Shown: in pieces, positions 11,656 through 41,478 of the stretch
Numbering within the stretch: the stretch's first letter is position 1
Layout: every line of letters begins with the position of its first letter
Origin: Candidatus Sericytochromatia bacterium
GTDB taxonomy: Bacteria; Cyanobacteriota; Sericytochromatia; S15B-MN24; JAQBPE01
DNA: 64,000 nucleotides
NCBI GenBank assembly: GCA_035285125.1
Contig: JAYKHR010000045.1
Coordinates: forward strand, 110,412-174,411
Direction of reading: 5' to 3'
Program-made: the position numbers and the translations under genes
Notes under the pieces: model-generated
What the model was told of the DNA's origin: nothing
Databases searched by the model: none
What the model saw: only the letters and a program-made list of their open reading frames with translations

Positions 11656-11659
11656 GCGC

Positions 11660-16390: not shown

Positions 16391-16403
16391 GGTGGATGTC
16401 CCG

Positions 16404-17156: not shown

Positions 17157-17225
17157 GGAATCTTCCTTTCGACTTGAATCAGGCAAGCTCTGCAGCTGTC
17201 GGACGAACGAGAGGGGCGGGCCGCC

Positions 17226-18963: not shown

Positions 18964-19383
18964 ATGCCCGTTGGCGCGCCGACCCGCAAGCCGCTGCTCG
19001 GCCTGATCATGCAGCGCGAGGGATTGATCGACGAGGCCACGCTGGCGCTGGCCGTCGAGGCCTGGGAGGCCCTGCGCGGGGAGGTCGGGTACGTGCCCTT
19101 CGGCCGCGTGGTGCTGGAACTCGGGATCTGCGATGCCGAGACGCTGGGCCCCTACCTGCACCTGCAGCGCCAGCTGGCCGTCGCGCCGGGGCCGCGCAAG
19201 CCGCTCGGGCACCTGCTGATCGAGAACGCGGTGCTGACGCCCTCTCAGGTGGCGATCGCGCTGAAGCTGCAGCGGGCCACGGGCAAGCCGCTCGGCACCC
19301 TGCTGGTCGAGGAAGAGGTGCTGCGCGAGCCTCAGCTGGAGGTGCTGCTCCGCTTCCAGGCCCGTAGCGTGCAGGCCGCCTGA
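18964..19383 (+). CDS. Small stand-alone protein built from MshEN/T2SSE_N-like repeats (putative c-di-GMP receptor)
   Basis: 139 aa from ATG 18964. The upstream part of ORF 18571..19383 is junk-like. Four ~24-residue units resemble the MshEN motif: LLGLIMQREGLIDEATLALAVEAW, FGRVVLELGICDAETLGPYLHLQ, LGHLLIENAVLTPSQVAIALKLQ, LGTLLVEEEVLREPQLEVLLRFQ. Confidence 0.6.
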   Translation: MPVGAPTRKPLLGLIMQREGLIDEATLALAVEAWEALRGEVGYVPFGRVVLELGICDAETLGPYLHLQRQLAVAPGPRKPLGHLLIENAVLTPSQVAIALKLQRATGKPLGTLLVEEEVLREPQLEVLLRFQARSVQAA

Positions 19384-19478
19384 CGCCCTGAAGGCCCGCC
19401 TGGCCGCTTGCTCGCCCCCTGGGGGTTTGCTACGATAGCCCTTCTGGCGCTCATTTCGAAGCGAGAAGGCAGGCAGCC

Positions 19479-20783: not shown

Positions 20784-20791
20784 GAGGTCCC

Positions 20792-22093
20792 GTGCAAGTC
20801 CGCACCTTCGACACCCTCAAGGAGTCCGTGTACGAGGAGACGCTGCCCAACGGGCTGGTGGTCCAGCTCGTGCCGCGGCCCGGCTACGCGAAGACCTTCG
20901 CCGTCTTCACGACCCGCTACGGGTCGGTCGACAACCACTTCCAGCGGGAGGGAGAGCCCGCCTGCCAGGTGCCCGACGGCATCGCGCACTTCCTCGAGCA
21001 CAAGCTGTTCGAAGAGGAGTGGGGGGACATCTTCCACACCTTCTCGAGCCAGGGCGCCTCCGCCAACGCCTTCACGAGCCACAACCGCACGGCCTACCTG
21101 TTCTCCGCCACCGACCAGGTCGAGACGAACCTCGAGACGCTGCTGGACTTCGTGCAGCGGCCCCACCTGACGCCCGAGAACGTGGAGAAGGAGAAGGGCA
21201 TCATCGAGCAGGAGATCCGCATGTACGACGACATGGCGTACTGGCGGGCCCACCGGCACCTGCTCGAGAACCTGTTCCACGTGAACCCGGTGCGCATCGA
21301 CATCGCAGGGACGGCCGAGTCGATCGGCCGCATCGACCGCGAGACGCTGATGGCCTGCTACGAGACGTTCTACCACCCCAGCAACATGCGGCTGTGCGTG
21401 GTGGGCGACCTCGCGCCGGACCGCGTCATGGCCCTCGTGCGGGAGAACCAGGCGCGCAAGGCCTTCCCGCCGGCCCGCCCGATCACGCGCGTCTTCCCAC
21501 CCGAGCCGCCTGAGCCCGCGCGCCGGACGCACACCGTGCGGCTCGCCGTCTCTCGGCCGATGGTGCTGCTCGGCTGGAAAGACCGGACGACGACGCCTGC
21601 GGAGGGTCACCTGCGGCGCACGCTGCTGATGGGCCTGCTGCAAGACGTGATGTTCGGCCGCTCGTCCGCGCTGTTCCAGGACCTGCTCGACCAGGGCGCC
21701 ATCGACGACATGCTCGCCTACGACTACGACCTCGGCGAGGGCTTCGGCTACTCGTACATCGGGACGGAGACGGACGACCCGGCCGCCTTCGAGCAGGCCG
21801 TGCTCGCCGCCGTCGAAGCCTTCCGCCGCGAGGGCCTGCCCGCGGACGAGTTCGAGCGGGCCGGCCACAAGCAGATCGGGGACTACCTCTACACGCTCAA
21901 CAGCCCGGAGGCCGTGGCGAACCAGGTGACGGAGGTCGCCTTCCAGCACGGCGACTACTTCGCCATCCCCGAGTTGTTGACCAGGCTCACGCGGGAGGAA
22001 GCCGAGGCGTTGCTGCGGGAGCACTTCGATCCGGCCCAGTGCGTCACCTCGATCGTGCTGCCGGGCGGCGAGGCGCCCACGCCGGAGGGCTGA
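20792..22093 (+). CDS. M16 family zinc metallopeptidase (active-site HxxEH present)
   Basis: 433 aa. AGGAGG lies upstream of GTG 20792. GIAHFLEHKLFEE carries HFLEH, encoded at 20987-21001. Downstream Glu-rich EKEKGIIEQEIRMY is typical of M16. The gene starts 8 nt after the preceding M16 gene. Confidence 0.9.
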   Translation: MQVRTFDTLKESVYEETLPNGLVVQLVPRPGYAKTFAVFTTRYGSVDNHFQREGEPACQVPDGIAHFLEHKLFEEEWGDIFHTFSSQGASANAFTSHNRTAYLFSATDQVETNLETLLDFVQRPHLTPENVEKEKGIIEQEIRMYDDMAYWRAHRHLLENLFHVNPVRIDIAGTAESIGRIDRETLMACYETFYHPSNMRLCVVGDLAPDRVMALVRENQARKAFPPARPITRVFPPEPPEPARRTHTVRLAVSRPMVLLGWKDRTTTPAEGHLRRTLLMGLLQDVMFGRSSALFQDLLDQGAIDDMLAYDYDLGEGFGYSYIGTETDDPAAFEQAVLAAVEAFRREGLPADEFERAGHKQIGDYLYTLNSPEAVANQVTEVAFQHGDYFAIPELLTRLTREEAEALLREHFDPAQCVTSIVLPGGEAPTPEG

Positions 22094-22272
22094 CAGGTGC
22101 AAAGGACGCGCTGGGCGTCCCGATGGCGGTCACCCCCCGGCCGGACGGGCGGCGGACCGTCGCCGATGCGGGCCACGGCCAGGTCCGCATGGTCCCGGCG
22201 GAGCCCCTGCCAGGAGGCTTCACGACGCCGCGGGCTCGTTTTCAGCGCGCTGGCGAGGGGTACGTTGGGGCC

Positions 22273-25203
22273 ATGGCGCGCCTCCCCCGGCTTCGGACGC
22301 TCGGCACGGCCCTGCTGGTGTTGCTGGTCGGCTGTCAGGCCGCAGGTCCAGCCAGCGGGCCGCGACCCAAGGCCGGCGCCTCGCGCCCTGGCCGGGTGCT
22401 CCCCAGCGCCGTCTCGGCCAAGGGGAGGGTGGTCGTCGTGCCCCAACGCGGCACGGCCAGCACCCTCACGGGCAAGGCGAAGCTGATCGCCCACCCGGGC
22501 GGCGCCCTGATCAGCGATCAGGGGGGGGCCCTGATCAGCGATCAGGGGGGCGGCCTGATCAGCGACCAGGGCGGCGGCGTTATCAGCAACAGCGGCGGCC
22601 GGCTGCTCGGCAACAACGGCGCGGGTCTCACGGGCCCGGCACGGCGGGTGGTGCTGCAGGCGGGCGCGGGCCTGGGCATCTACGGCCTCGCGGACGCGGA
22701 GCTGCGCCTCTTCGACGCCACGGGGCGGCTGCTCGTTGACGAAGCGGGCAAGCCCCTCGCGGCCACCACCGGCTCCGACGCGGCGTTCCGCCTCGAGGCG
22801 GTGCTGCCCCCCGGAAACCTCGTCGCCCGCATCAGGCTCTGGGACGGCGGCGAGCTCACCGCCATCGTGGCACAAGACGGGGCCCAGCAAGCGTCCCTGG
22901 AGCTCACCACGGCCTCCTCGCTCGGCGCCAGCTACGTGCTGGGGCTCGTGGCTGGCCAGCAGGCGGTCCTCGACAAGCTCCCCCGGGCCGAGAGCGACCG
23001 CCTCAACCGCGAGCTCGACGTCGTGCGCGGCTTCGCCAGGGGCGCCTTCGCGCACCAGGCCGCCACCCTCGATGCCATCACGGCCAAGCTCCGGCAGCGC
23101 GTCCCCGCCGTGGACCGCGTCGCCGAGGACATCAAGGCCCTGCTGCTCGGCCAGGCCCGGCTCGGCAGCGGCCGGCTCGCCACCGAGGTCCCGCTGGGCG
23201 GCCCCGGGGCCGTGGTCGCGACCCCCCGCGGGCTGCTCGTGACGGAGCTTCGCCCCGGTCGCGTCCGGCGGCTGGCGGCAGATGGGACGCTCGAGACCTT
23301 GGTGGACAAGGGCTTCGGCAGCTTCAAGACGAACCACCCGGGCCTGCAGGACCTCGTGGAGGCCCCCGATGGCACCCTGTACCTGACGCAGCGCAACGCC
23401 TTCCGGGTCTACCGGCTCGCGCCCGGCGCCCCTCCGGAGGCCTGGCTCGGCACGGGAGCGCAGGGCCGCGACCCGGCGGGCCCGCGCACGGCCATGCGCG
23501 TCGCGCCCCGCTCGTTGGCCCTCGGGCCCGACGGCACCTTGTGGGTGGGGGAGGAGCGCGGCGGCGGAGAGACCAAGCTCACGCCGCCCAGGCTCATCGC
23601 GGTGCGACCGGACGGGCGCACGGAGGTGTTCCAGGACCCGGCCTGGGGGCCGGGCAGCGTGACCGGGCTGGCAGCAGGCCCCGAGGGCACGGTCTGGGCG
23701 CTGCACGTCGGCACGGCGCCCGCAGCCGAGGGGTACAAGCCGGTGGGGCGCGTCAGCCGCCTCAGCGCAGGTCGCTTCGAGCCCGTCGCGCAGGGGCTGC
23801 CCGCGGGAGAGTGGGCAGACCTCGCGCTCGCCCCCGACGGCACGGTCTACGTGAGCACCGACGGCCCCGAGGGCATCAGGGTGGTGGCGGCGGACGGCAG
23901 CTGGCCCGCGCTGCCGCAGGCGGACGCCCTGCGGGCGCTGGGCCTCCGCCGCGCCAGCGGGCTCGGCGTGGGCCCGGACGGCACGCTGCACGTGACGGAC
24001 ATGGCCTCCAACCTGGTCGCCTCCCTCCCGCCGGGCGGCCTCCCGCGGCTCGTGGCAGGGACGCAGGCGCTGTTCCAGTCCGGGGAGGGCCGGGGCTTCG
24101 CGATCAACCTGCCCGGCGGGCTCGCGTTGGACGGGCAGCAGCGCCTGTTCATCTCCGAGGTGGGCAGCCACACCATCCGGGCCTTCGACGGCCACAGCCT
24201 CGTGACGGTGGCGGGCACGGTGGCCGGCCACGGCGGGGACGGAGGCCCGGCCACCGAGGCCCGCCTCGCGGGCCCCAAGGGCGTGGCCTGGGGGGCCAGC
24301 GGCCTTTGGGTGGTGGACGAGCAGAACGGCGTCCTGAGGCGCATGCGCCCGGACGGCGTGATGGAAACGGCTGCCGGGCAGGACCGCGGCGCGAAGCCGC
24401 TGGCGCCGGGCGAGAGCGTCGGGAGCGACGTCAGCACCTTCGGAGGGGGGATCGGGCTCACGCTGGGGCCCCGCGGCGAGCCCGTCTGGGCGAACGCCAA
24501 GGTGCGCCAGGTGCAGTGGCTCGACACGGCTGGTGGCACGCCGGTGGTGCGACACCTGCTCGGCGCCGCCCAGGACTTCTCGGAGGGGGCCGTGAACTCG
24601 GCCATCAGCAACCTGTTGCTCGGCCCGAGCACCCTCGAACCGGGCGACATTCGCCTCATCGTGCCCTTCGGCGTCGCCTTCGGGCCGGATGGCGCCCTGT
24701 ACGTCTCGGACAGCGGCACCATGCAGGTCTACCGCGTGCGGGGCTTCGGCACGGCCAGCCCCACGCTGGAGGTGTTCGCCGGCCTGCACGTCAGCGAGGT
24801 GCTGGGGCGCCTCGCGCAGGACCCGACGCTGCCGGACGAGGAGGGGCGCCCCGCCCGCGAGGCGATGCTCGGCGTGCCGACGGGCATCGCGTTCGATGCC
24901 GCGGGCAACGTGTACGTGTGCGAGGCCGGCACCCGCAACCTGGACGCCCTGGTGCCGCTGCTCGGGCGCGACTTCCCGATCGATCTCGGGCTGCTGCCCG
25001 TCTTGCCGACGCGCATCCGCCGCATCACGCCGGCGGGCGTCATCACCACGGTGGCCGGGCCCGGCGGGAGGCGCTTCGCGAATCCGGACGCCGAGGAGGC
25101 CCTCGTGACGCCCACGGGGCTCGCCTGGTTCCCGGACGGCCGGCTCGCCATCGCAGACTCGGGCAGCAACCTCGTGCACATCCTGCCGGCCGGGAGCTAC
25201 TGA
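22273..25203 (+). CDS. Large lipoprotein, paralog 1: octapeptide repeats, beta-sandwich, helical linker and about 12 NHL-type blades (double propeller)
   Basis: ATG 22273 gives MARLPRLRTLGTALLVLLVGCQA (lipobox); the ORF extends upstream to 22039 without protein-like sequence. 976 aa. Repeats GGALISDQ. YGLADAELRLFDATGRLLVDEAGKPL...ARIRLWDGGELTAIV sandwich. Blades such as LALGPDGTLWVGEE, LHVTDMASNLVASL, GLWVVDEQNGVLRRM, GALYVSDSGTMQVYRV, GNVYVCEAGTRNLD, GRLAIADSGSNLVHILPAGSY. Confidence 0.8.
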   Translation: MARLPRLRTLGTALLVLLVGCQAAGPASGPRPKAGASRPGRVLPSAVSAKGRVVVVPQRGTASTLTGKAKLIAHPGGALISDQGGALISDQGGGLISDQGGGVISNSGGRLLGNNGAGLTGPARRVVLQAGAGLGIYGLADAELRLFDATGRLLVDEAGKPLAATTGSDAAFRLEAVLPPGNLVARIRLWDGGELTAIVAQDGAQQASLELTTASSLGASYVLGLVAGQQAVLDKLPRAESDRLNRELDVVRGFARGAFAHQAATLDAITAKLRQRVPAVDRVAEDIKALLLGQARLGSGRLATEVPLGGPGAVVATPRGLLVTELRPGRVRRLAADGTLETLVDKGFGSFKTNHPGLQDLVEAPDGTLYLTQRNAFRVYRLAPGAPPEAWLGTGAQGRDPAGPRTAMRVAPRSLALGPDGTLWVGEERGGGETKLTPPRLIAVRPDGRTEVFQDPAWGPGSVTGLAAGPEGTVWALHVGTAPAAEGYKPVGRVSRLSAGRFEPVAQGLPAGEWADLALAPDGTVYVSTDGPEGIRVVAADGSWPALPQADALRALGLRRASGLGVGPDGTLHVTDMASNLVASLPPGGLPRLVAGTQALFQSGEGRGFAINLPGGLALDGQQRLFISEVGSHTIRAFDGHSLVTVAGTVAGHGGDGGPATEARLAGPKGVAWGASGLWVVDEQNGVLRRMRPDGVMETAAGQDRGAKPLAPGESVGSDVSTFGGGIGLTLGPRGEPVWANAKVRQVQWLDTAGGTPVVRHLLGAAQDFSEGAVNSAISNLLLGPSTLEPGDIRLIVPFGVAFGPDGALYVSDSGTMQVYRVRGFGTASPTLEVFAGLHVSEVLGRLAQDPTLPDEEGRPAREAMLGVPTGIAFDAAGNVYVCEAGTRNLDALVPLLGRDFPIDLGLLPVLPTRIRRITPAGVITTVAGPGGRRFANPDAEEALVTPTGLAWFPDGRLAIADSGSNLVHILPAGSY
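22498..22641 (+). repeat. In-frame 24-nt (octapeptide) tandem repeat, 6 units: GGALISDQ x2, GGGLISDQ, GGGVISNS, GGRLLGNN, GAGLTGPA
   Basis: Read directly in the coding frame of paralog 1. The first three units are near-identical at the DNA level. Confidence 0.9.
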
Positions 25204-25259
25204 GGGGGTGCCGGGCCGGCCGGTTCGAGGCCGCGCCGTGCGGGTACCTGATCCCCACG

Positions 25260-28112
25260 ATGTCTCGAGCGAGCCTGCGCCTGACCCTCACCGCGGCCCT
25301 GCTGGCCCTGTGCCTGGGCTGCCAGGCCAGCGTCGTGGCACGTCCCGGCCGGTCCCCACGGCCGCCGGGGCCGCTGCAGCCGGCAGCCTCCCCGGCCGCC
25401 CCCGGCCAGGCCGGCGCGACCCTCGCCGTGCCCCAGCGGGGCCAACCCACCCGCCTCACGGGGCTCGCCCGCCTCATCGCCGACCCGGGCGCCCCCCTGG
25501 TCGGGGACGCCGGGGGAGGGCTGCTGAGCAACACCGGAGGCGCCCTGCTCAGCGACCTCGGGGGCGCCGTCATCAGCAACAACAGCGGCACCGTCGTGAG
25601 CAACAACAGCGCCGCCATCGTGAGCAACAGGGGTGGCAGCCTCACGGCCTCTCGCCGCGTGCTGCAGGCCGGCAGCGGCCTTGGCGTCTATGGCCTCTCA
25701 GACGCCGAGGTCCGCCTGTACGACGCCGCCGGGCGGCTGCTCGTCGACGAGGCTGGCCGGCCCCTCGCAGCGACGACGGGCCCGGACGCCACGTTCAAGC
25801 TCGAGGCCGTGCTGCCGCCCGGGAACCTCGTCGCCCGCGTCAGGCTCTGGGACGGGGGCGAGCTGACCGCCATCGTCGCCCGCGAGGGTGCCAGCGAGGC
25901 CACCCTCCCCCTCTCGACGGCCTCCACCCTGGGCGCCACCTACGTCCTCGGCCTCGTCGGGGGCCAGCAAGCCACGCTCGACAAGCTGCCACGCAGCGAG
26001 AACGAGCGCCTGGTGCGCGAGCTCGACGTCGTGCGCGGCTTCGTGCGGGGCGCCTTCAAGCACGAGGCCACGACCCTCGATGCCATCACGGCCGGGCTGC
26101 GCCAGCGCGTCCCGGCCGTCGAGCAGGTCGCTGCGGAGGTCAAGGCCCTGTTGCTCGGCCAGGCCGAGCTCGGGGCGGGCCGCCCCGCCACGGAGGTGCC
26201 GCTGGGCGGGCCCCTGCACCTGGCCGTGTCGCGGGAGGGACGCCTCGTGATCGGCGAGCTGATCACGGGCCGCATCCGGGAGTTGCAGCCGGACGGCACG
26301 CTTGCGCTGCTGCTCGACCAGACCCACGGCCGCATCAAGCACAACGCCTTCTCGCTCTCCGGCCTCGTGGAGGGGCCGGATGGCACGCTGCACGCGGTGG
26401 TCAAGGGGGCCAACAAGGTGCTCCGCGTCTCGCGGTCAGCGCAAACGGTCTCCGTCGTGCTCGGGACGGGGAAGGAGGGCCGGAGCGCCCCGACCGACCC
26501 GCTGAAGGCGGACTGCACGCCCCTCTGCCTGGCCCTGGGGCCGGACGGCACGCTCTGGGTGGGCGAGCGGTCCAGCCGCGCTGCCGGCGGCCCCCCTCGG
26601 CTGCTGGCCCTGCGGCCTGGCGGGACGCTGGAGGCCTATACGCCCGAGGGCAGCCACAACATCCTGAGCGTGGCGGTAGGGCCCGGGGGGGCCGTGTACT
26701 CGCTGCGCTGGGACAGCGACGCTAATTCCTGCACCCTGTGGCGCCTCGACCCCGGGGGGCGCTGGACCCAGCTTGCCGCCGGGCTCGCCACCGAGGGCCA
26801 GGGCGGGCTGTGCGTCACGCCCGAGGGCAGGCTGCTGCTCAGCGAGGGGAGGCGCGGTCGGGTGCTCGCGCTGCAGCCCGACGGCACGCTCGCGCCCCTG
26901 GACGGGCTGAGCCCAGGCCCCGCGATCCCAGGGGCGCTGGTCGCCCACCCGGACGGCACCGTGTTCATCGCCGACCTCGCCTCGAACGTGGTGTGGGCCT
27001 GGCGTGCGGGCAGCCCTCCCCGGCCCGTGGCGGGCACGGCCGCCGCCTTCCAGCTGGGAGAGACCCAGGCCTTCGCCATCAACACACCCCTCGGGCTGGC
27101 CGCAGACGGCCAGGGGGTGCTCCACATCGCCGAGGCGGGCAGCCGCAGCGTGAAACGCTTCGATGGCAAGGGACTCGCGGTTGTGGCGGGCGGCGGCAGC
27201 ACCTCCGAGGAGGGCGTGCAGGCCCGTGAGGCCCTGCTGAAAAGCCTCACGGGGATTGCTTGGCACGACGGCGCCCTGCACCTGATGGACCAGGGCAGCC
27301 AGCACATCCTCCGCGTCGGCCCGGACGGCACGCTGCAAACCCGGCACCGGCTCCCGAGCCTCAATGAAGCCTTCGGGCTGGCCTTCGGGCCGGACGGGCA
27401 GCCCTGGTGGACCCGGCCCGTCACGGGCGAGCTGCTCCGGCTGCTGCCCAGCGGTGAGGCCGTCCCGGCCGTGGGGCGCGGCGCGCTGACCAGCGCCCAG
27501 CGCGCCGTGGCCCTGATCGGCCTGGCCGAGGCCGTCGGCCCGGACCCGGCGGAGCTGGCGACGGTCATGCCCGTGGCCGTGGTGCGCGACCCGGACGGCC
27601 ACATGGTGTTCTGCGACGCGGCGGCCGGGCGGGTGTACCGGGTGCGCACCGGCAGCCCCGGGACGGTGGAGCTCGTGGCCGGCCTGCCCCTGAGCCAGGC
27701 CATCCCGCGGGCGCTGGAGCTCAAGGCCGGCCCCGGCCTGGCGGCGGAGAACGGCCTGCAGGCCCGGGACGCGGTGCTATCCGTCCCGCTCGGCCTCGCC
27801 TTCGACGCGGCCGGCAACCTCTACGTCGCGGAAAGCGGCGACCGCAACCTGGAGGCCATGGCCCCCACGCTCGGCGCCAGCATCCCACTCGACGCCTCCC
27901 TGCTGGTGGGCATGCCCCCCCGCATGCGCCGCATCACGCCCGCGGGCGTCATCACGACGATCGCGGGCCCCGGCGGCAAGTTCTTCACGAGCCCCGAGGG
28001 CGAGGACGCCCTGTCCATGCCCATCGGCCTCCTCGTGATGCCCGACGGGCGCCTCGTGATCGCAGACGCTGGCAGCAACATGGTGCGCATCCTGCCGGCC
28101 GGGAGCTACTGA
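25260..28112 (+). CDS. Large lipoprotein, paralog 2 (same architecture as 22273..25203)
   Basis: ATG 25260 gives MSRASLRLTLTAALLALCLGCQA. The upstream 573 codons of ORF 23541..28112 overlap paralog 1 out of frame and are junk-like. 950 aa. Collinear with paralog 1, including NERLVRELDVVRGF and the C-terminus GRLVIADAGSNMVRILPAGSY. Confidence 0.8.
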   Translation: MSRASLRLTLTAALLALCLGCQASVVARPGRSPRPPGPLQPAASPAAPGQAGATLAVPQRGQPTRLTGLARLIADPGAPLVGDAGGGLLSNTGGALLSDLGGAVISNNSGTVVSNNSAAIVSNRGGSLTASRRVLQAGSGLGVYGLSDAEVRLYDAAGRLLVDEAGRPLAATTGPDATFKLEAVLPPGNLVARVRLWDGGELTAIVAREGASEATLPLSTASTLGATYVLGLVGGQQATLDKLPRSENERLVRELDVVRGFVRGAFKHEATTLDAITAGLRQRVPAVEQVAAEVKALLLGQAELGAGRPATEVPLGGPLHLAVSREGRLVIGELITGRIRELQPDGTLALLLDQTHGRIKHNAFSLSGLVEGPDGTLHAVVKGANKVLRVSRSAQTVSVVLGTGKEGRSAPTDPLKADCTPLCLALGPDGTLWVGERSSRAAGGPPRLLALRPGGTLEAYTPEGSHNILSVAVGPGGAVYSLRWDSDANSCTLWRLDPGGRWTQLAAGLATEGQGGLCVTPEGRLLLSEGRRGRVLALQPDGTLAPLDGLSPGPAIPGALVAHPDGTVFIADLASNVVWAWRAGSPPRPVAGTAAAFQLGETQAFAINTPLGLAADGQGVLHIAEAGSRSVKRFDGKGLAVVAGGGSTSEEGVQAREALLKSLTGIAWHDGALHLMDQGSQHILRVGPDGTLQTRHRLPSLNEAFGLAFGPDGQPWWTRPVTGELLRLLPSGEAVPAVGRGALTSAQRAVALIGLAEAVGPDPAELATVMPVAVVRDPDGHMVFCDAAAGRVYRVRTGSPGTVELVAGLPLSQAIPRALELKAGPGLAAENGLQARDAVLSVPLGLAFDAAGNLYVAESGDRNLEAMAPTLGASIPLDASLLVGMPPRMRRITPAGVITTIAGPGGKFFTSPEGEDALSMPIGLLVMPDGRLVIADAGSNMVRILPAGSY
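25488..25655 (+). repeat. In-frame octapeptide repeat, 7 degenerate units: GAPLVGDA, GGGLLSNT, GGALLSDL, GGAVISNN, SGTVVSNN, SAAIVSNR, GGSLTASR
   Basis: Read directly in the coding frame of paralog 2. Confidence 0.85.
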
Positions 28113-28154
28113 CCGCCGGTTCACAGCTCTGGGAGCGGGGTAGGGAGAGGAGGT

Positions 28155-28934
28155 ATGGCCCGCTCGGTTCCCCACGCCTCCCTGATAGCTACCCTGCTGG
28201 CAATCAGCCTCGGCTGCCAGGCCGTGGGCCCCGGCCGCCCGACCGCGCCCAAGCGCACGACGCCGTCCAGCACTGCCAAGGCCATCCCGGCGCCCGCCCT
28301 GGCCCGGCCTGGCGAGCCCCGGCGCATCCCCCAGCAGGGCCAGCAGACCCGCCTCGCGGGCCTCGCCCGCCTCATCGCCCACCCCGGCGGGGCCCTCATC
28401 AGCGACCAGGGGGGGGCCCTCATCAGCGACCAGGGGGGCGCCCTGATCAGCGACCAGGGCGGGGCCGTCATCAGCAACAACAGCGGGAGCATCATCAGCG
28501 ACCAAGGCGGCTCGCTCATCGGCAACAACGGCGGCGGCCTGCTCGGCAATACCAAGGCCCAGCGCCTGCTGCAGGCAAGCTCTGGCCTCGGCGTCTACGG
28601 CCTCGCCGACGCCGAGATCCGCCTCTACGACGCCGCCGGCCGGCTGCTCGTCGACGACGCCGGCAAGCCCCTCGCCGCCACGACCGGCCGCGACGCCACC
28701 TTCCAGCTCGAGGCTGTGCTGCCGCCAGGCAACATGGTGGCCCGCATCAAGCTCTGGAATGGCGGCGAGCTCTCTGCCATCGTCGCCCGCGACGGCGCCC
28801 AGCAGGCGTCGCTCGCGCTCACCACTGCCTCCTCGCTGGGGGCCACCTACGTGATGGGCCTCGTCAAGGGCGACCAGGCCATCCTGAACAAGCTGCCCGC
28901 CGCCGAGAACGACCGCCTCAACCGCGAGCTCGAC
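28155..28934 (+). pseudogene. Paralog 3 of the large lipoprotein family, truncated after 260 codons by the palindrome axis
   Basis: GGAGAGGAGG lies upstream of ATG 28155. MARSVPHASLIATLLAISLGCQA lipobox, octapeptide repeats and beta-sandwich are collinear with paralogs 1 and 2 up to ...NDRLNRELDV. There the paralogs continue VRGF..., but this sequence turns into its own reverse complement. Confidence 0.75.
28386..28553 (+). repeat. In-frame octapeptide repeat, 7 units: GGALISDQ x3, GGAVISNN, SGSIISDQ, GGSLIGNN, GGGLLGNT
   Basis: Read directly in frame. The first three 24-nt units are nearly identical. Confidence 0.9.
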
Positions 28935-29714
28935 GTCGAGCTCGCGGTTGAGGCGGTCGTTCTCGGCGGCGGGCAGCTTGTTCAGGATGGCCTGGTCGCC
29001 CTTGACGAGGCCCATCACGTAGGTGGCCCCCAGCGAGGAGGCAGTGGTGAGCGCGAGCGACGCCTGCTGGGCGCCGTCGCGGGCGACGATGGCAGAGAGC
29101 TCGCCGCCATTCCAGAGCTTGATGCGGGCCACCATGTTGCCTGGCGGCAGCACAGCCTCGAGCTGGAAGGTGGCGTCGCGGCCGGTCGTGGCGGCGAGGG
29201 GCTTGCCGGCGTCGTCGACGAGCAGCCGGCCGGCGGCGTCGTAGAGGCGGATCTCGGCGTCGGCGAGGCCGTAGACGCCGAGGCCAGAGCTTGCCTGCAG
29301 CAGGCGCTGGGCCTTGGTATTGCCGAGCAGGCCGCCGCCGTTGTTGCCGATGAGCGAGCCGCCTTGGTCGCTGATGATGCTCCCGCTGTTGTTGCTGATG
29401 ACGGCCCCGCCCTGGTCGCTGATCAGGGCGCCCCCCTGGTCGCTGATGAGGGCCCCCCCCTGGTCGCTGATGAGGGCCCCGCCGGGGTGGGCGATGAGGC
29501 GGGCGAGGCCCGCGAGGCGGGTCTGCTGGCCCTGCTGGGGGATGCGCCGGGGCTCGCCAGGCCGGGCCAGGGCGGGCGCCGGGATGGCCTTGGCAGTGCT
29601 GGACGGCGTCGTGCGCTTGGGCGCGGTCGGGCGGCCGGGGCCCACGGCCTGGCAGCCGAGGCTGATTGCCAGCAGGGTAGCTATCAGGGAGGCGTGGGGA
29701 ACCGAGCGGGCCAT
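28935..29714 (-). pseudogene. Mirror copy of truncated paralog 3
   Basis: Exact reverse-complement twin of 28155..28934. The two 645-aa ORFs (27777..29714(-), 28155..30092(+)) are identical chimeras that read through the axis. Confidence 0.75.
29316..29483 (-). repeat. Mirror copy of the paralog-3 octapeptide repeat
   Basis: Exact reverse complement of 28386..28553. Confidence 0.9.
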
Positions 29715-29756
29715 ACCTCCTCTCCCTACCCCGCTCCCAGAGCTGTGAACCGGCGG

Positions 29757-32609
29757 TCAGTAGCTCCCGGCCGGCAGGATGCGCACCATGTTGCTGCCAG
29801 CGTCTGCGATCACGAGGCGCCCGTCGGGCATCACGAGGAGGCCGATGGGCATGGACAGGGCGTCCTCGCCCTCGGGGCTCGTGAAGAACTTGCCGCCGGG
29901 GCCCGCGATCGTCGTGATGACGCCCGCGGGCGTGATGCGGCGCATGCGGGGGGGCATGCCCACCAGCAGGGAGGCGTCGAGTGGGATGCTGGCGCCGAGC
30001 GTGGGGGCCATGGCCTCCAGGTTGCGGTCGCCGCTTTCCGCGACGTAGAGGTTGCCGGCCGCGTCGAAGGCGAGGCCGAGCGGGACGGATAGCACCGCGT
30101 CCCGGGCCTGCAGGCCGTTCTCCGCCGCCAGGCCGGGGCCGGCCTTGAGCTCCAGCGCCCGCGGGATGGCCTGGCTCAGGGGCAGGCCGGCCACGAGCTC
30201 CACCGTCCCGGGGCTGCCGGTGCGCACCCGGTACACCCGCCCGGCCGCCGCGTCGCAGAACACCATGTGGCCGTCCGGGTCGCGCACCACGGCCACGGGC
30301 ATGACCGTCGCCAGCTCCGCCGGGTCCGGGCCGACGGCCTCGGCCAGGCCGATCAGGGCCACGGCGCGCTGGGCGCTGGTCAGCGCGCCGCGCCCCACGG
30401 CCGGGACGGCCTCACCGCTGGGCAGCAGCCGGAGCAGCTCGCCCGTGACGGGCCGGGTCCACCAGGGCTGCCCGTCCGGCCCGAAGGCCAGCCCGAAGGC
30501 TTCATTGAGGCTCGGGAGCCGGTGCCGGGTTTGCAGCGTGCCGTCCGGGCCGACGCGGAGGATGTGCTGGCTGCCCTGGTCCATCAGGTGCAGGGCGCCG
30601 TCGTGCCAAGCAATCCCCGTGAGGCTTTTCAGCAGGGCCTCACGGGCCTGCACGCCCTCCTCGGAGGTGCTGCCGCCGCCCGCCACAACCGCGAGTCCCT
30701 TGCCATCGAAGCGTTTCACGCTGCGGCTGCCCGCCTCGGCGATGTGGAGCACCCCCTGGCCGTCTGCGGCCAGCCCGAGGGGTGTGTTGATGGCGAAGGC
30801 CTGGGTCTCTCCCAGCTGGAAGGCGGCGGCCGTGCCCGCCACGGGCCGGGGAGGGCTGCCCGCACGCCAGGCCCACACCACGTTCGAGGCGAGGTCGGCG
30901 ATGAACACGGTGCCGTCCGGGTGGGCGACCAGCGCCCCTGGGATCGCGGGGCCTGGGCTCAGCCCGTCCAGGGGCGCGAGCGTGCCGTCGGGCTGCAGCG
31001 CGAGCACCCGACCGCGCCTCCCCTCGCTGAGCAGCAGCCTGCCCTCGGGCGTGACGCACAGCCCGCCCTGGCCCTCGGTGGCGAGCCCGGCGGCAAGCTG
31101 GGTCCAGCGCCCCCCGGGGTCGAGGCGCCACAGGGTGCAGGAATTAGCGTCGCTGTCCCAGCGCAGCGAGTACACGGCCCCCCCGGGCCCTACCGCCACG
31201 CTCAGGATGTTGTGGCTGCCCTCGGGCGTATAGGCCTCCAGCGTCCCGCCAGGCCGCAGGGCCAGCAGCCGAGGGGGGCCGCCGGCAGCGCGGCTGGACC
31301 GCTCGCCCACCCAGAGCGTGCCGTCCGGCCCCAGGGCCAGGCAGAGGGGCGTGCAGTCCGCCTTCAGCGGGTCGGTCGGGGCGCTCCGGCCCTCCTTCCC
31401 CGTCCCGAGCACGACGGAGACCGTTTGCGCTGACCGCGAGACGCGGAGCACCTTGTTGGCCCCCTTGACCACCGCGTGCAGCGTGCCATCCGGCCCCTCC
31501 ACGAGGCCGGAGAGCGAGAAGGCGTTGTGCTTGATGCGGCCGTGGGTCTGGTCGAGCAGCAGCGCAAGCGTGCCGTCCGGCTGCAACTCCCGGATGCGGC
31601 CCGTGATCAGCTCGCCGATCACGAGGCGTCCCTCCCGCGACACGGCCAGGTGCAGGGGCCCGCCCAGCGGCACCTCCGTGGCGGGGCGGCCCGCCCCGAG
31701 CTCGGCCTGGCCGAGCAACAGGGCCTTGACCTCCGCAGCGACCTGCTCGACGGCCGGGACGCGCTGGCGCAGCCCGGCCGTGATGGCATCGAGGGTCGTG
31801 GCCTCGTGCTTGAAGGCGCCCCGCACGAAGCCGCGCACGACGTCGAGCTCGCGCACCAGGCGCTCGTTCTCGCTGCGTGGCAGCTTGTCGAGCGTGGCTT
31901 GCTGGCCCCCGACGAGGCCGAGGACGTAGGTGGCGCCCAGGGTGGAGGCCGTCGAGAGGGGGAGGGTGGCCTCGCTGGCACCCTCGCGGGCGACGATGGC
32001 GGTCAGCTCGCCCCCGTCCCAGAGCCTGACGCGGGCGACGAGGTTCCCGGGCGGCAGCACGGCCTCGAGCTTGAACGTGGCGTCCGGGCCCGTCGTCGCT
32101 GCGAGGGGCCGGCCAGCCTCGTCGACGAGCAGCCGCCCGGCGGCGTCGTACAGGCGGACCTCGGCGTCTGAGAGGCCATAGACGCCAAGGCCGCTGCCGG
32201 CCTGCAGCACGCGGCGAGAGGCCGTGAGGCTGCCACCCCTGTTGCTCACGATGGCGGCGCTGTTGTTGCTCACGACGGTGCCGCTGTTGTTGCTGATGAC
32301 GGCGCCCCCGAGGTCGCTGAGCAGGGCGCCTCCGGTGTTGCTCAGCAGCCCTCCCCCGGCGTCCCCGACCAGGGGGGCGCCCGGGTCGGCGATGAGGCGG
32401 GCGAGCCCCGTGAGGCGGGTGGGTTGGCCCCGCTGGGGCACGGCGAGGGTCGCGCCGGCCTGGCCGGGGGCGGCCGGGGAGGCTGCCGGCTGCAGCGGCC
32501 CCGGCGGCCGTGGGGACCGGCCGGGACGTGCCACGACGCTGGCCTGGCAGCCCAGGCACAGGGCCAGCAGGGCCGCGGTGAGGGTCAGGCGCAGGCTCGC
32601 TCGAGACAT
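29757..32609 (-). CDS. Large lipoprotein paralog 2 (mirror copy)
   Basis: Exact reverse-complement twin of 25260..28112, with identical translation in ORF 29757..34328(-). Confidence 0.8.
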   Translation of the reverse strand: MSRASLRLTLTAALLALCLGCQASVVARPGRSPRPPGPLQPAASPAAPGQAGATLAVPQRGQPTRLTGLARLIADPGAPLVGDAGGGLLSNTGGALLSDLGGAVISNNSGTVVSNNSAAIVSNRGGSLTASRRVLQAGSGLGVYGLSDAEVRLYDAAGRLLVDEAGRPLAATTGPDATFKLEAVLPPGNLVARVRLWDGGELTAIVAREGASEATLPLSTASTLGATYVLGLVGGQQATLDKLPRSENERLVRELDVVRGFVRGAFKHEATTLDAITAGLRQRVPAVEQVAAEVKALLLGQAELGAGRPATEVPLGGPLHLAVSREGRLVIGELITGRIRELQPDGTLALLLDQTHGRIKHNAFSLSGLVEGPDGTLHAVVKGANKVLRVSRSAQTVSVVLGTGKEGRSAPTDPLKADCTPLCLALGPDGTLWVGERSSRAAGGPPRLLALRPGGTLEAYTPEGSHNILSVAVGPGGAVYSLRWDSDANSCTLWRLDPGGRWTQLAAGLATEGQGGLCVTPEGRLLLSEGRRGRVLALQPDGTLAPLDGLSPGPAIPGALVAHPDGTVFIADLASNVVWAWRAGSPPRPVAGTAAAFQLGETQAFAINTPLGLAADGQGVLHIAEAGSRSVKRFDGKGLAVVAGGGSTSEEGVQAREALLKSLTGIAWHDGALHLMDQGSQHILRVGPDGTLQTRHRLPSLNEAFGLAFGPDGQPWWTRPVTGELLRLLPSGEAVPAVGRGALTSAQRAVALIGLAEAVGPDPAELATVMPVAVVRDPDGHMVFCDAAAGRVYRVRTGSPGTVELVAGLPLSQAIPRALELKAGPGLAAENGLQARDAVLSVPLGLAFDAAGNLYVAESGDRNLEAMAPTLGASIPLDASLLVGMPPRMRRITPAGVITTIAGPGGKFFTSPEGEDALSMPIGLLVMPDGRLVIADAGSNMVRILPAGSY
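32214..32381 (-). repeat. Mirror copy of the paralog-2 octapeptide repeat
   Basis: Exact reverse complement of 25488..25655. Confidence 0.85.
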
Positions 32610-32665
32610 CGTGGGGATCAGGTACCCGCACGGCGCGGCCTCGAACCGGCCGGCCCGGCACCCCC

Positions 32666-35596
32666 TCAGTAGCTCCCGGCCGGCAGGATGTGCACGAGGT
32701 TGCTGCCCGAGTCTGCGATGGCGAGCCGGCCGTCCGGGAACCAGGCGAGCCCCGTGGGCGTCACGAGGGCCTCCTCGGCGTCCGGATTCGCGAAGCGCCT
32801 CCCGCCGGGCCCGGCCACCGTGGTGATGACGCCCGCCGGCGTGATGCGGCGGATGCGCGTCGGCAAGACGGGCAGCAGCCCGAGATCGATCGGGAAGTCG
32901 CGCCCGAGCAGCGGCACCAGGGCGTCCAGGTTGCGGGTGCCGGCCTCGCACACGTACACGTTGCCCGCGGCATCGAACGCGATGCCCGTCGGCACGCCGA
33001 GCATCGCCTCGCGGGCGGGGCGCCCCTCCTCGTCCGGCAGCGTCGGGTCCTGCGCGAGGCGCCCCAGCACCTCGCTGACGTGCAGGCCGGCGAACACCTC
33101 CAGCGTGGGGCTGGCCGTGCCGAAGCCCCGCACGCGGTAGACCTGCATGGTGCCGCTGTCCGAGACGTACAGGGCGCCATCCGGCCCGAAGGCGACGCCG
33201 AAGGGCACGATGAGGCGAATGTCGCCCGGTTCGAGGGTGCTCGGGCCGAGCAACAGGTTGCTGATGGCCGAGTTCACGGCCCCCTCCGAGAAGTCCTGGG
33301 CGGCGCCGAGCAGGTGTCGCACCACCGGCGTGCCACCAGCCGTGTCGAGCCACTGCACCTGGCGCACCTTGGCGTTCGCCCAGACGGGCTCGCCGCGGGG
33401 CCCCAGCGTGAGCCCGATCCCCCCTCCGAAGGTGCTGACGTCGCTCCCGACGCTCTCGCCCGGCGCCAGCGGCTTCGCGCCGCGGTCCTGCCCGGCAGCC
33501 GTTTCCATCACGCCGTCCGGGCGCATGCGCCTCAGGACGCCGTTCTGCTCGTCCACCACCCAAAGGCCGCTGGCCCCCCAGGCCACGCCCTTGGGGCCCG
33601 CGAGGCGGGCCTCGGTGGCCGGGCCTCCGTCCCCGCCGTGGCCGGCCACCGTGCCCGCCACCGTCACGAGGCTGTGGCCGTCGAAGGCCCGGATGGTGTG
33701 GCTGCCCACCTCGGAGATGAACAGGCGCTGCTGCCCGTCCAACGCGAGCCCGCCGGGCAGGTTGATCGCGAAGCCCCGGCCCTCCCCGGACTGGAACAGC
33801 GCCTGCGTCCCTGCCACGAGCCGCGGGAGGCCGCCCGGCGGGAGGGAGGCGACCAGGTTGGAGGCCATGTCCGTCACGTGCAGCGTGCCGTCCGGGCCCA
33901 CGCCGAGCCCGCTGGCGCGGCGGAGGCCCAGCGCCCGCAGGGCGTCCGCCTGCGGCAGCGCGGGCCAGCTGCCGTCCGCCGCCACCACCCTGATGCCCTC
34001 GGGGCCGTCGGTGCTCACGTAGACCGTGCCGTCGGGGGCGAGCGCGAGGTCTGCCCACTCTCCCGCGGGCAGCCCCTGCGCGACGGGCTCGAAGCGACCT
34101 GCGCTGAGGCGGCTGACGCGCCCCACCGGCTTGTACCCCTCGGCTGCGGGCGCCGTGCCGACGTGCAGCGCCCAGACCGTGCCCTCGGGGCCTGCTGCCA
34201 GCCCGGTCACGCTGCCCGGCCCCCAGGCCGGGTCCTGGAACACCTCCGTGCGCCCGTCCGGTCGCACCGCGATGAGCCTGGGCGGCGTGAGCTTGGTCTC
34301 TCCGCCGCCGCGCTCCTCCCCCACCCACAAGGTGCCGTCGGGCCCGAGGGCCAACGAGCGGGGCGCGACGCGCATGGCCGTGCGCGGGCCCGCCGGGTCG
34401 CGGCCCTGCGCTCCCGTGCCGAGCCAGGCCTCCGGAGGGGCGCCGGGCGCGAGCCGGTAGACCCGGAAGGCGTTGCGCTGCGTCAGGTACAGGGTGCCAT
34501 CGGGGGCCTCCACGAGGTCCTGCAGGCCCGGGTGGTTCGTCTTGAAGCTGCCGAAGCCCTTGTCCACCAAGGTCTCGAGCGTCCCATCTGCCGCCAGCCG
34601 CCGGACGCGACCGGGGCGAAGCTCCGTCACGAGCAGCCCGCGGGGGGTCGCGACCACGGCCCCGGGGCCGCCCAGCGGGACCTCGGTGGCGAGCCGGCCG
34701 CTGCCGAGCCGGGCCTGGCCGAGCAGCAGGGCCTTGATGTCCTCGGCGACGCGGTCCACGGCGGGGACGCGCTGCCGGAGCTTGGCCGTGATGGCATCGA
34801 GGGTGGCGGCCTGGTGCGCGAAGGCGCCCCTGGCGAAGCCGCGCACGACGTCGAGCTCGCGGTTGAGGCGGTCGCTCTCGGCCCGGGGGAGCTTGTCGAG
34901 GACCGCCTGCTGGCCAGCCACGAGCCCCAGCACGTAGCTGGCGCCGAGCGAGGAGGCCGTGGTGAGCTCCAGGGACGCTTGCTGGGCCCCGTCTTGTGCC
35001 ACGATGGCGGTGAGCTCGCCGCCGTCCCAGAGCCTGATGCGGGCGACGAGGTTTCCGGGGGGCAGCACCGCCTCGAGGCGGAACGCCGCGTCGGAGCCGG
35101 TGGTGGCCGCGAGGGGCTTGCCCGCTTCGTCAACGAGCAGCCGCCCCGTGGCGTCGAAGAGGCGCAGCTCCGCGTCCGCGAGGCCGTAGATGCCCAGGCC
35201 CGCGCCCGCCTGCAGCACCACCCGCCGTGCCGGGCCCGTGAGACCCGCGCCGTTGTTGCCGAGCAGCCGGCCGCCGCTGTTGCTGATAACGCCGCCGCCC
35301 TGGTCGCTGATCAGGCCGCCCCCCTGATCGCTGATCAGGGCCCCCCCCTGATCGCTGATCAGGGCGCCGCCCGGGTGGGCGATCAGCTTCGCCTTGCCCG
35401 TGAGGGTGCTGGCCGTGCCGCGTTGGGGCACGACGACCACCCTCCCCTTGGCCGAGACGGCGCTGGGGAGCACCCGGCCAGGGCGCGAGGCGCCGGCCTT
35501 GGGTCGCGGCCCGCTGGCTGGACCTGCGGCCTGACAGCCGACCAGCAACACCAGCAGGGCCGTGCCGAGCGTCCGAAGCCGGGGGAGGCGCGCCAT
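32666..35596 (-). CDS. Large lipoprotein paralog 1 (mirror copy)
   Basis: Exact reverse-complement twin of 22273..25203, with identical translation in ORF 32666..35830(-). Confidence 0.8.
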   Translation of the reverse strand: MARLPRLRTLGTALLVLLVGCQAAGPASGPRPKAGASRPGRVLPSAVSAKGRVVVVPQRGTASTLTGKAKLIAHPGGALISDQGGALISDQGGGLISDQGGGVISNSGGRLLGNNGAGLTGPARRVVLQAGAGLGIYGLADAELRLFDATGRLLVDEAGKPLAATTGSDAAFRLEAVLPPGNLVARIRLWDGGELTAIVAQDGAQQASLELTTASSLGASYVLGLVAGQQAVLDKLPRAESDRLNRELDVVRGFARGAFAHQAATLDAITAKLRQRVPAVDRVAEDIKALLLGQARLGSGRLATEVPLGGPGAVVATPRGLLVTELRPGRVRRLAADGTLETLVDKGFGSFKTNHPGLQDLVEAPDGTLYLTQRNAFRVYRLAPGAPPEAWLGTGAQGRDPAGPRTAMRVAPRSLALGPDGTLWVGEERGGGETKLTPPRLIAVRPDGRTEVFQDPAWGPGSVTGLAAGPEGTVWALHVGTAPAAEGYKPVGRVSRLSAGRFEPVAQGLPAGEWADLALAPDGTVYVSTDGPEGIRVVAADGSWPALPQADALRALGLRRASGLGVGPDGTLHVTDMASNLVASLPPGGLPRLVAGTQALFQSGEGRGFAINLPGGLALDGQQRLFISEVGSHTIRAFDGHSLVTVAGTVAGHGGDGGPATEARLAGPKGVAWGASGLWVVDEQNGVLRRMRPDGVMETAAGQDRGAKPLAPGESVGSDVSTFGGGIGLTLGPRGEPVWANAKVRQVQWLDTAGGTPVVRHLLGAAQDFSEGAVNSAISNLLLGPSTLEPGDIRLIVPFGVAFGPDGALYVSDSGTMQVYRVRGFGTASPTLEVFAGLHVSEVLGRLAQDPTLPDEEGRPAREAMLGVPTGIAFDAAGNVYVCEAGTRNLDALVPLLGRDFPIDLGLLPVLPTRIRRITPAGVITTVAGPGGRRFANPDAEEALVTPTGLAWFPDGRLAIADSGSNLVHILPAGSY
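35228..35371 (-). repeat. Mirror copy of the paralog-1 octapeptide repeat
   Basis: Exact reverse complement of 22498..22641. Confidence 0.9.
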
Positions 35597-35775
35597 GGCC
35601 CCAACGTACCCCTCGCCAGCGCGCTGAAAACGAGCCCGCGGCGTCGTGAAGCCTCCTGGCAGGGGCTCCGCCGGGACCATGCGGACCTGGCCGTGGCCCG
35701 CATCGGCGACGGTCCGCCGCCCGTCCGGCCGGGGGGTGACCGCCATCGGGACGCCCAGCGCGTCCTTTGCACCTG

Positions 35776-37077
35776 TCAGCCCTCCGGCGTGGGCGCCTCG
35801 CCGCCCGGCAGCACGATCGAGGTGACGCACTGGGCCGGATCGAAGTGCTCCCGCAGCAACGCCTCGGCTTCCTCCCGCGTGAGCCTGGTCAACAACTCGG
35901 GGATGGCGAAGTAGTCGCCGTGCTGGAAGGCGACCTCCGTCACCTGGTTCGCCACGGCCTCCGGGCTGTTGAGCGTGTAGAGGTAGTCCCCGATCTGCTT
36001 GTGGCCGGCCCGCTCGAACTCGTCCGCGGGCAGGCCCTCGCGGCGGAAGGCTTCGACGGCGGCGAGCACGGCCTGCTCGAAGGCGGCCGGGTCGTCCGTC
36101 TCCGTCCCGATGTACGAGTAGCCGAAGCCCTCGCCGAGGTCGTAGTCGTAGGCGAGCATGTCGTCGATGGCGCCCTGGTCGAGCAGGTCCTGGAACAGCG
36201 CGGACGAGCGGCCGAACATCACGTCTTGCAGCAGGCCCATCAGCAGCGTGCGCCGCAGGTGACCCTCCGCAGGCGTCGTCGTCCGGTCTTTCCAGCCGAG
36301 CAGCACCATCGGCCGAGAGACGGCGAGCCGCACGGTGTGCGTCCGGCGCGCGGGCTCAGGCGGCTCGGGTGGGAAGACGCGCGTGATCGGGCGGGCCGGC
36401 GGGAAGGCCTTGCGCGCCTGGTTCTCCCGCACGAGGGCCATGACGCGGTCCGGCGCGAGGTCGCCCACCACGCACAGCCGCATGTTGCTGGGGTGGTAGA
36501 ACGTCTCGTAGCAGGCCATCAGCGTCTCGCGGTCGATGCGGCCGATCGACTCGGCCGTCCCTGCGATGTCGATGCGCACCGGGTTCACGTGGAACAGGTT
36601 CTCGAGCAGGTGCCGGTGGGCCCGCCAGTACGCCATGTCGTCGTACATGCGGATCTCCTGCTCGATGATGCCCTTCTCCTTCTCCACGTTCTCGGGCGTC
36701 AGGTGGGGCCGCTGCACGAAGTCCAGCAGCGTCTCGAGGTTCGTCTCGACCTGGTCGGTGGCGGAGAACAGGTAGGCCGTGCGGTTGTGGCTCGTGAAGG
36801 CGTTGGCGGAGGCGCCCTGGCTCGAGAAGGTGTGGAAGATGTCCCCCCACTCCTCTTCGAACAGCTTGTGCTCGAGGAAGTGCGCGATGCCGTCGGGCAC
36901 CTGGCAGGCGGGCTCTCCCTCCCGCTGGAAGTGGTTGTCGACCGACCCGTAGCGGGTCGTGAAGACGGCGAAGGTCTTCGCGTAGCCGGGCCGCGGCACG
37001 AGCTGGACCACCAGCCCGTTGGGCAGCGTCTCCTCGTACACGGACTCCTTGAGGGTGTCGAAGGTGCGGACTTGCAC
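35776..37077 (-). CDS. M16 zinc metallopeptidase with HxxEH (mirror copy)
   Basis: Exact twin of 20792..22093; identical 433-aa ORF. Confidence 0.9.
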   Translation of the reverse strand: MQVRTFDTLKESVYEETLPNGLVVQLVPRPGYAKTFAVFTTRYGSVDNHFQREGEPACQVPDGIAHFLEHKLFEEEWGDIFHTFSSQGASANAFTSHNRTAYLFSATDQVETNLETLLDFVQRPHLTPENVEKEKGIIEQEIRMYDDMAYWRAHRHLLENLFHVNPVRIDIAGTAESIGRIDRETLMACYETFYHPSNMRLCVVGDLAPDRVMALVRENQARKAFPPARPITRVFPPEPPEPARRTHTVRLAVSRPMVLLGWKDRTTTPAEGHLRRTLLMGLLQDVMFGRSSALFQDLLDQGAIDDMLAYDYDLGEGFGYSYIGTETDDPAAFEQAVLAAVEAFRREGLPADEFERAGHKQIGDYLYTLNSPEAVANQVTEVAFQHGDYFAIPELLTRLTREEAEALLREHFDPAQCVTSIVLPGGEAPTPEG

Positions 37078-37085
37078 GGGACCTC

Positions 37086-38390: not shown

Positions 38391-38485
38391 GGCTGCCTGC
38401 CTTCTCGCTTCGAAATGAGCGCCAGAAGGGCTATCGTAGCAAACCCCCAGGGGGCGAGCAAGCGGCCAGGCGGGCCTTCAGGGCG

Positions 38486-40643: not shown

Positions 40644-40712
40644 GGCGGCCCGCCCCTCTCGTTCGTCCGACAGCTGCAGAGCTTGCCTGATTCAAGTCGA
40701 AAGGAAGATTCC

Positions 40713-41465: not shown

Positions 41466-41478
41466 CGGGACATCCACC

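Follow-up and report, generated by a model that had tools for sequence, protein, structure and literature searches.

The window, by which we mean the whole 64,000-nt stretch of DNA analysed here, comes from an NCBI contig of a Candidatus Sericytochromatia MAG, and the closest relatives of its proteins are found in Sericytochromatia MAGs. Pfam scanning placed its genes in efflux and enzyme families (HlyD/AcrB efflux, glycerophosphodiester phosphodiesterase, histidine kinase, aminotransferase, a beta-lactamase-family protein and M16 peptidases) and in a range of others (DUF4332, NHL and YncE propellers, TonB, SulP, carbonic anhydrase, ArsR, an ankyrin protein and signal peptidase), and every candidate gene scanned either belonged to an ordinary chromosomal family or gave no match. 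No resolvase-like gene was found among the scanned candidates in the 35 kb of unique window sequence, no phage- or plasmid-type genes were seen in the window, and no RNA genes or tRNAs lie at or near the axis of symmetry described below.

Towards the middle of the window a pair of M16 peptidase genes is followed by three tandem paralogues of a lipoprotein/NHL-propeller family, whose members are built from a lipoprotein-type signal (…LGCQ), GGxLISDQ repeats, a conserved N-terminal region (without a Pfam match) and propeller repeats of the NHL/Vgb-lyase type. The third paralogue is cut short. Its translation is normal as far as …DRLNRELD(V) (codon 260 or 261) and then turns into the antisense of itself, leaving a spurious chimeric open reading frame (28155-30092, 645 codons) that is meaningless, being paralogue 3 joined to its own antisense. 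The propeller part, about 690 codons, is absent, in agreement with the original prediction that everything after codon 260 is lost; the cut falls there in a gene of about 950 codons, whose orthologues reach at least 890 aa.

The cut coincides with the centre of a very large palindrome (Table 1). The two arms are exact reverse complements of each other over 28,934 nt each, at 100% identity and with a spacer of 0 nt, so that the second part repeats the first backwards with no divergence at all; 28,934 nt is a lower bound for the arm size, the left arm being truncated by the window edge. Arms that are 100% identical and have no spacer are what is expected of one sequence spelled twice. Around the axis, at 28921-28948, the sequence reads accgcgagctcgac on the left and gtcgagctcgcggt on the right, exactly as first reported, and the symmetry extends far beyond the 28 nt given at that time. 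The junction product reads ...GAGCTCGACGTCGAGCTC..., or in another excerpt ...GAGCTCGACGTCGAGCTCGCGG..., and as a stretch of 24 nt or more CGCGAGCTCGACGTCGAGCTCGCG. Each base in it is either native sequence or its reverse complement, with nothing inserted or untemplated and no trace of an adapter.

Table 1. Positions of the palindrome, the affected genes and matching contigs in the window
Feature	Position	Strand	Remarks
Left arm of perfect palindrome	1..28934	.	100% reverse complement of 28935-57868; cut by the window edge
Logan contig L004	12448-19242		100% identity
Paralogue 1, intact	22273..25203	+	homologous motif at 23011-23031
Paralogue 2, intact (P0018, 950 aa)	25260..28112	+	homologous motif at 26019-26039
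Paralogue 3, N-terminal 260-261 codons	28155..28937	+	ATG at 28155; lipoprotein signal, GGxLISDQ repeats and conserved N-terminal domain; truncated by the fold-back
29-nt exact repeat	28910..28938	+	same as 22995-23023 in paralogue 1; its right end is cut by the junction
Native 8-bp palindrome CGACGTCG	28931..28938	.	interval of breakpoint ambiguity; same motif at six homologous sites in three genomes
Mirror image of paralogue 3 N-terminal part	28932-29714	minus	
Right arm of perfect palindrome	28935..57868	.	runs on into unique sequence from 57869
Logan contig L006	57328-58604		100% identity; uninterrupted over 57868/57869 within the TonB gene
TonB-family gene spanning the end of the mirrored part	57656-58417	minus	
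Unique continuation of right arm	57869..64000	.	remainder of TonB-family gene, SulP, carbonic anhydrase, ArsR, ankyrin protein, signal peptidase
Logan contig L003	60403 to window end 64000, then onward		100% identity

The axis lies on a palindrome that is native to the gene family

Both intact paralogues carry GAGCTCGACGTCGTGCGCGGC at the position homologous to the axis (at 23011 and 26019), encoding NRELDVVRGF and VRELDVVRGF, respectively, just as the original prediction stated. When four genes from two related Sericytochromatia assemblies were added to these two, all six homologous sites read GAGCTCGACGTCGT(G/C)CGCGGC, and each contains the self-complementary octamer CGACGTCG. Among these genes is P0001, the closest orthologue of paralogue 3 (82% identical; MAG contig JAYKHL010000034.1), which at the homologous site reads GACCGCCTCAACCGCGAGCTCGACGTCGtccgcggc (divided by a bar, GACCGCCTCAACCGCGAGCTCGACGTCG / TCCGCGGCTTC). 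P0001 is the same as the window for 28 nt up to and through CGACGTCG, and beyond that point it continues as a normal gene. Going by this orthologue and by the three counterparts in a second relative (see below), the unrearranged paralogue 3 almost certainly contained CGACGTCG already, as had been proposed.

The motif also sets the limit to which the breakpoint can be placed. In BLAST comparisons both relatives remain collinear with the window up to 28938, while the alignments with the mirrored copy end at 28931 or 28925, in agreement with the earlier view that the breakpoint can be placed no more finely than 28931-28938. The axis falls within codons 257-261 of conserved coding sequence, through which the orthologues read.

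That the junction falls on the octamer is unlikely to be due to chance. Perfect palindromes of at least 8 bp are centred on only 248 (0.7%) of the 35,022 inter-base positions in the 35 kb of non-mirrored sequence, so that a junction placed at random would have a probability of about 0.007 of finding such microhomology. What would be expected of a template switch, a junction on a short pre-existing inverted repeat or palindrome, is what we see at CGACGTCG. At the same time, the native-like single strand folds into no special hairpin when compared with shuffled controls (z = 0.24), and the folding energy of the 3'-terminal 22-mer is only -1 kcal/mol, which suggests that pairing of the 8-mer between strands is more plausible than intrastrand snap-back.

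The axis also lies on the longest repeat shared between paralogues

The 29-nt stretch that ends at the junction (28910-28938) is the longest exact match between the N-terminal part of paralogue 3 and the other paralogues. A similar situation is seen in JGI contig Ga0310140_0002481, in which the genes are intact: exact repeats of 56 and 53 nt, longer than any others in the whole array, are shared by the orthologues of paralogues 1 and 3, and they span and directly follow the CGACGTCG motif. At the longest inter-paralogue repeat two paralogues are most easily collapsed into one path of a de Bruijn graph, and contigs are prone to stop there. Moreover, three related contigs do stop inside this lipoprotein/NHL-propeller family: P0001 ends at 431 aa, about 0.5 kb beyond the motif, and P0002 at 333 aa, both marked as partial, while the fourth paralogue of Ga0310140_0002481 (J_p4) reaches the end of its contig. 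The repeats of 29, 56 and 53 nt and these contig ends all point to the axis as a place where an assembly graph would be ambiguous or come to an end.

Relatives and contigs of the same population

The gene order of the window is shared with both related assemblies. Ga0310140_0002481 carries the family as an intact tandem array of four genes, with products of 991, 929, 956 and at least 890 aa; the second, third and fourth genes correspond to window paralogues 1, 2 and 3 (80, 73 and 78% identity); the motif CGACGTCG is present in all three of these counterparts, and the contig extends at least 1.9 kb beyond the point homologous to the axis, inside an intact gene. The site at which the window folds back is therefore not the end of a replicon in this relative.

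Over the stretches given in Table 1, three Logan contigs of run SRR19514065 match the window at 100% identity. One of them, L006, runs straight through the mirror image of window position 1, which suggests that the visible left end of the palindrome is not a second rearrangement junction in that assembly; judging from the sequence, it would be either the cut made by the window or the end of a mirrored graph edge. The source record has an even size of 278,690 nt, or 2 x 139,345, and the palindrome may thus reach well past the window, perhaps over the whole contig. If the record were to begin at window position 1, the left arm would probably be the artefactual mirror copy.

Three homologue searches for an intact paralogue 3 of the same population returned relatives only; the two of them that used a single sequence gave very few matches and missed even the window's own paralogues, so that they are weak as negative results. 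Scanning genome contigs for paralogue 3 found one related MAG only, and nothing was found by a protein scan of metagenome contigs or by a scan of viral contigs. Exact look-ups of the M16 peptidase, the chimeric open reading frame, AcrB and the carbonic anhydrase gave no match. In the protein collection we found neither the 70-aa partial TonB product that would start at window position 1 nor any of ten guessed truncated products of paralogue 3 (260-266 aa, with chimeric or native endings).

The 24-nt junction palindrome does occur in 13 metagenome contigs. All 13 are short natural palindromes with a perfect half-length of 12-19 nt, and the idea that the same fold-back recurs elsewhere was rejected on these grounds.

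A probable fold-back chimera enlarged by the assembler

Taken together, the sequence features at the axis lead us to read the palindrome as a template-switch fold-back chimera that was enlarged by the assembler, and hence as a misassembly in a public MAG and not as a structure of the chromosome; we put the probability of this reading at roughly 80%. The original prediction had named a strand or template switch at a short palindrome already present, whether in vitro or in vivo, as the source of the junction, and this idea gains support from the intact paralogues, from the orthologues and from the low chance probability (about 0.007) of hitting such a site.

The events could have run as follows. 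A 3' end finishing in the self-complementary CGACGTCG inside paralogue 3 would have annealed to its counterpart on the complementary strand and then been extended, perhaps during end repair or gap filling, during strand-displacement synthesis or during amplification. The product, in at least one sequenced molecule, would be a fold-back chimera with the junction described above. Going by the published behaviour of assemblers, such a junction would form an inverted loop in the de Bruijn graph at a point where the true continuation is hard to resolve, because it lies in the longest exact repeat between paralogue 3 and the other paralogues. An assembler walking through the loop would then spell the sequence backwards and generate a perfect palindrome without a spacer, each arm measuring 28.9 kb or more. 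In the real genome the most probable continuation is ...CGACGTCGT(G/C)CGCGGCTTC..., leading into about 690 further codons of paralogue 3.

Two considerations bear on the part played by the reads. A native palindrome of 8 bp cannot make an inverted loop at k of 21 or more, and some reads must therefore really contain the junction; an actual molecule in the sample would be an equally good source of such junction-spanning reads. Conversely, a rare chimeric link normally loses to a well-covered path, so that an artefact requires the true path to be weak or ambiguous at this place. It is the location of the axis on the inter-paralogue repeat, together with the published record of palindromic contigs, that tilts our reading towards the artefact.

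That record is considerable. Among SPAdes assemblies of the GC-rich M. bovis, 81 whole-contig palindromes were judged to be assembly errors and discarded (PMC9455707), and palindromic contigs in cyanobacterial single-cell genome assemblies were likewise judged to be errors and discarded (bioRxiv 10.1101/2023.06.06.543983). When SPAdes or MEGAHIT meets an inverted loop, it writes out the complete palindromic unitig (PMC9528984). As for the chimeras themselves, more than 85% of those formed during MDA are inverted, and in more than 70% priming took place over 2-21 complementary nucleotides (Lasken and Stockwell 2007, PMC1855051); libraries made by sonication or with enzymes contain chimeric reads centred on natural inverted repeats or palindromes, for which the PDSM model has been put forward (PMC10908179); and in some long-read data sets fold-backs account for 1-4% of the reads or more (PMC12870357).

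Alternative explanations

The junction could also have arisen in the living cell, if a break had formed or a fork had stalled within paralogue 3 and synthesis was then primed at CGACGTCG on the opposite strand, by fold-back priming or in an ODIRA-like manner. We consider this unlikely, and find it similarly hard to accept its expected product, either an end capped by a hairpin or, once replicated, an inverted duplication of giant size, carried by some or all members of the sampled population. Long perfect palindromes without a spacer are unstable in bacteria, where SbcCD cleaves them, and here a very long one would have to persist; if the palindrome is real, its size of at least 29 kb, and possibly 139 kb, per arm is unusually large for a bacterium to tolerate. 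An in vivo origin does predict exactly the junction sequence observed, it accounts for the non-random use of microhomology, and it supplies the junction-spanning reads that any assembler needs at k of 21 or more; the formation of palindromes from short inverted repeats is, moreover, established in yeast and mammalian cells (PMC7999016, PMC4689423). However, the cases described are usually interrupted repeats in which an asymmetric centre is kept, the same junction was not seen in other metagenome contigs, and L006 runs unbranched over 57868/57869, giving no sign of a second junction at the mirror image of the window edge. An event in the cell would also leave unexplained why the axis coincides with the inter-paralogue repeat that breaks the graph. 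We therefore regard it as improbable that a break in this Sericytochromatia gene array was healed through the 8-bp palindrome and that the resulting hairpin-capped end or giant inverted duplication dominates the assembly.

A join that is purely computational, in which the contig was connected to its own reverse complement by the structure of the graph and no chimeric molecule ever existed, would fit the location of the axis within the inter-paralogue repeat, and palindromic contigs are known from assemblers (PMC9455707, PMC9528984). Still, an inverted loop requires a perfect palindrome of k-1 nucleotides (PMC9528984), whereas the native one measures only 8 bp, and the non-mirrored sequence holds no natural inverted copies of the paralogues; this makes such a join very unlikely.

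A native hairpin telomere of a linear replicon, with reads running round a covalently closed end and the assembly mirrored as a result, is the explanation we find hardest to credit, in spite of the fact that a sequenced hairpin end would look like a perfect palindrome without a spacer. A dedicated target site outside conserved genes is not what lies at the axis: it sits inside conserved coding sequence and removes about 690 codons, its left flank is identical to that of an orthologue that goes on normally, and gene order is kept in the relatives, one of which extends beyond the axis. Nor do the neighbouring genes help, as they are of ordinary chromosomal kinds and none of the candidates scanned with Pfam in the 35 kb of unique sequence resembles a resolvase, and similarity to phages and plasmids does not rise above chance. 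A comparison of the axis region with known telomere sites, suggested at the outset, was run against phage and plasmid records and returned only chance-level matches (E of at least 0.01) inside unrelated genes. The case that the original prediction made against a dedicated telomere holds, in view of the truncation of a conserved gene, the shared gene order, the lack of a resolvase-like gene among those scanned in the window and the chance-level similarity to phage and plasmid records.

Implications

If the palindrome is a chimera enlarged in assembly, as we favour, it is first of all a matter of data quality, in that a public MAG record appears to hold a mirrored duplicate that measures 28.9 kb or more, together with a gene whose truncation is false; should all 278,690 nt be palindromic, the duplicated part could amount to 139 kb. 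Palindromic contigs inflate genome size and gene-copy counts, they yield spurious chimeric reading frames such as the one of 645 codons described above, and they are open to confusion with hairpin telomeres or inverted duplications. The locus may serve as a worked example at the level of single bases, suggesting that a fold-back chimera at an 8-bp palindrome and a graph-breaking repeat suffice for a giant palindrome to appear in an assembly. If, on the other hand, the structure were real, it would be a rare natural case of fold-back-primed palindrome formation in a bacterium.

Comparison with known systems

Hairpin telomeres are made by protelomerases such as TelN of N15, ResT of Borrelia and TelA of Agrobacterium. 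Like the window, they appear in an assembly as a perfect palindrome without a spacer, but they have a dedicated non-coding target and a resolvase gene, while the axis of the window lies in ordinary coding sequence that is unrearranged in relatives, and no resolvase was seen in the window.

Fold-back priming and ODIRA (PMC7999016, PMC4689423) share with the window a short inverted repeat that primes the opposite strand and leads to a large palindrome. They differ in that they mostly give interrupted repeats with an asymmetric centre derived from the loop and are described in eukaryotes, whereas the palindrome of the window is seen in an assembled sequence.

Other parallels come from sequencing artefacts. 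In the inverted chimeras of MDA a displaced 3' end primes again on the complementary strand over 2-21 nt, a range that includes the 8 nt of the window; such chimeras typically carry a deletion between the inverted segments, whereas the switch in the window would have taken place exactly on the same site, giving perfect symmetry. Artefacts of the PDSM type and fold-backs in long reads, again like the window, join the original strand to its inverted complement, and a natural palindrome marks the centre of the junction, but they are low-frequency events at the level of single reads in human data, while in the window the artefact would have been propagated into a consensus contig.

The palindromic contigs produced by de Bruijn assemblers differ from the window in that the arms of the window are unequal, with the right arm 6.1 kb longer. 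This would be explained if the window covers an internal part of a longer palindrome, or if mirroring was confined to a single graph edge. In other ways the likeness is close: the first part is mirrored exactly, which gives each of its genes an identical copy in reverse complement, paralogous gene families occur in a GC-rich genome, and the even size of the source record is compatible with a palindromic unitig.

Open reading frames at the palindrome axis

The palindrome creates two 645-codon ORFs at its axis, which overlap and are mutually antisense, each of them consisting of one half real gene and one half antisense nonsense. Neither of their protein products is present in the protein collection, where the only matches encoded by the window are paralogues 1 and 2 of the lipoprotein array, and therefore the depositor's annotation apparently called no product at the axis ORFs. 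Thirteen metagenome contigs (L007-L019; G+C 60-74%) naturally carry the 24-nt palindrome of the junction, CGCGAGCTCGACGTCGAGCTCGCG, which encodes RELDVELA on either strand. They show by example that, in GC-rich genomes, short palindromes of this kind within coding sequence are not rare.

Features of the window and of related contigs (L001 and L005, contigs of relatives)
Feature	Position	Strand
Tandem array of large predicted lipoproteins	window 22273-28937 (mirror 28932-35596); L005 3962-15581; L001 10001-11293	
645-codon ORF, palindrome-made	28155-30092	+
645-codon ORF, palindrome-made	27777-29714	-
645-codon ORF, strong third-position G+C (0.94)	5679-7613	-
Histidine kinase gene	7727-9022	-
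934-codon ORF with aminotransferase domain	9198-12002	
TonB-family gene	57656-58417	-

Extent of the palindrome and its other regions

On its left, the visible palindrome ends (window position 1, and 57868-57869) in-frame within the TonB-family gene. The record length, 278,690 nt, is even (2 x 139,345), so the entire contig may be palindromic, with the window an internal slice of it.

G+C content, 70-76% elsewhere, dips to ~64.5% at 8001-10000 (mirrored at ~47869-49868), a segment spanning the histidine kinase gene and the beginning of the 934-codon ORF. Since a GNAT match at 11272-11655 falls in a different reading frame from that of the 934-codon ORF, this ORF may join two separate genes or be a reading-frame artefact of high G+C. 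The 645-codon ORF outside the axis has no Pfam match.

The predicted lipoprotein array

The array is conserved in several Sericytochromatia assemblies, where it stands directly 3' of an M16 peptidase gene pair. Each member carries a signal with an LGCQ end and GGxLISDQ-type repeats; ~130 aa of its N-terminal part match nothing in Pfam, and it has two propeller regions of NHL/Vgb-lyase-like type. Single-sequence homologue searches with fragments of paralogue 3 yielded no more than 2-5 proteins, none of them with Pfam annotation, and missed the window's own paralogues, which an alignment-based search easily recovered; for a query so rich in repeats, a negative from a single-sequence search therefore carries little weight. 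The window holds three array members; the JGI relative (contig Ga0310140_0002481) holds at least four, including an additional first copy that is absent from the window.
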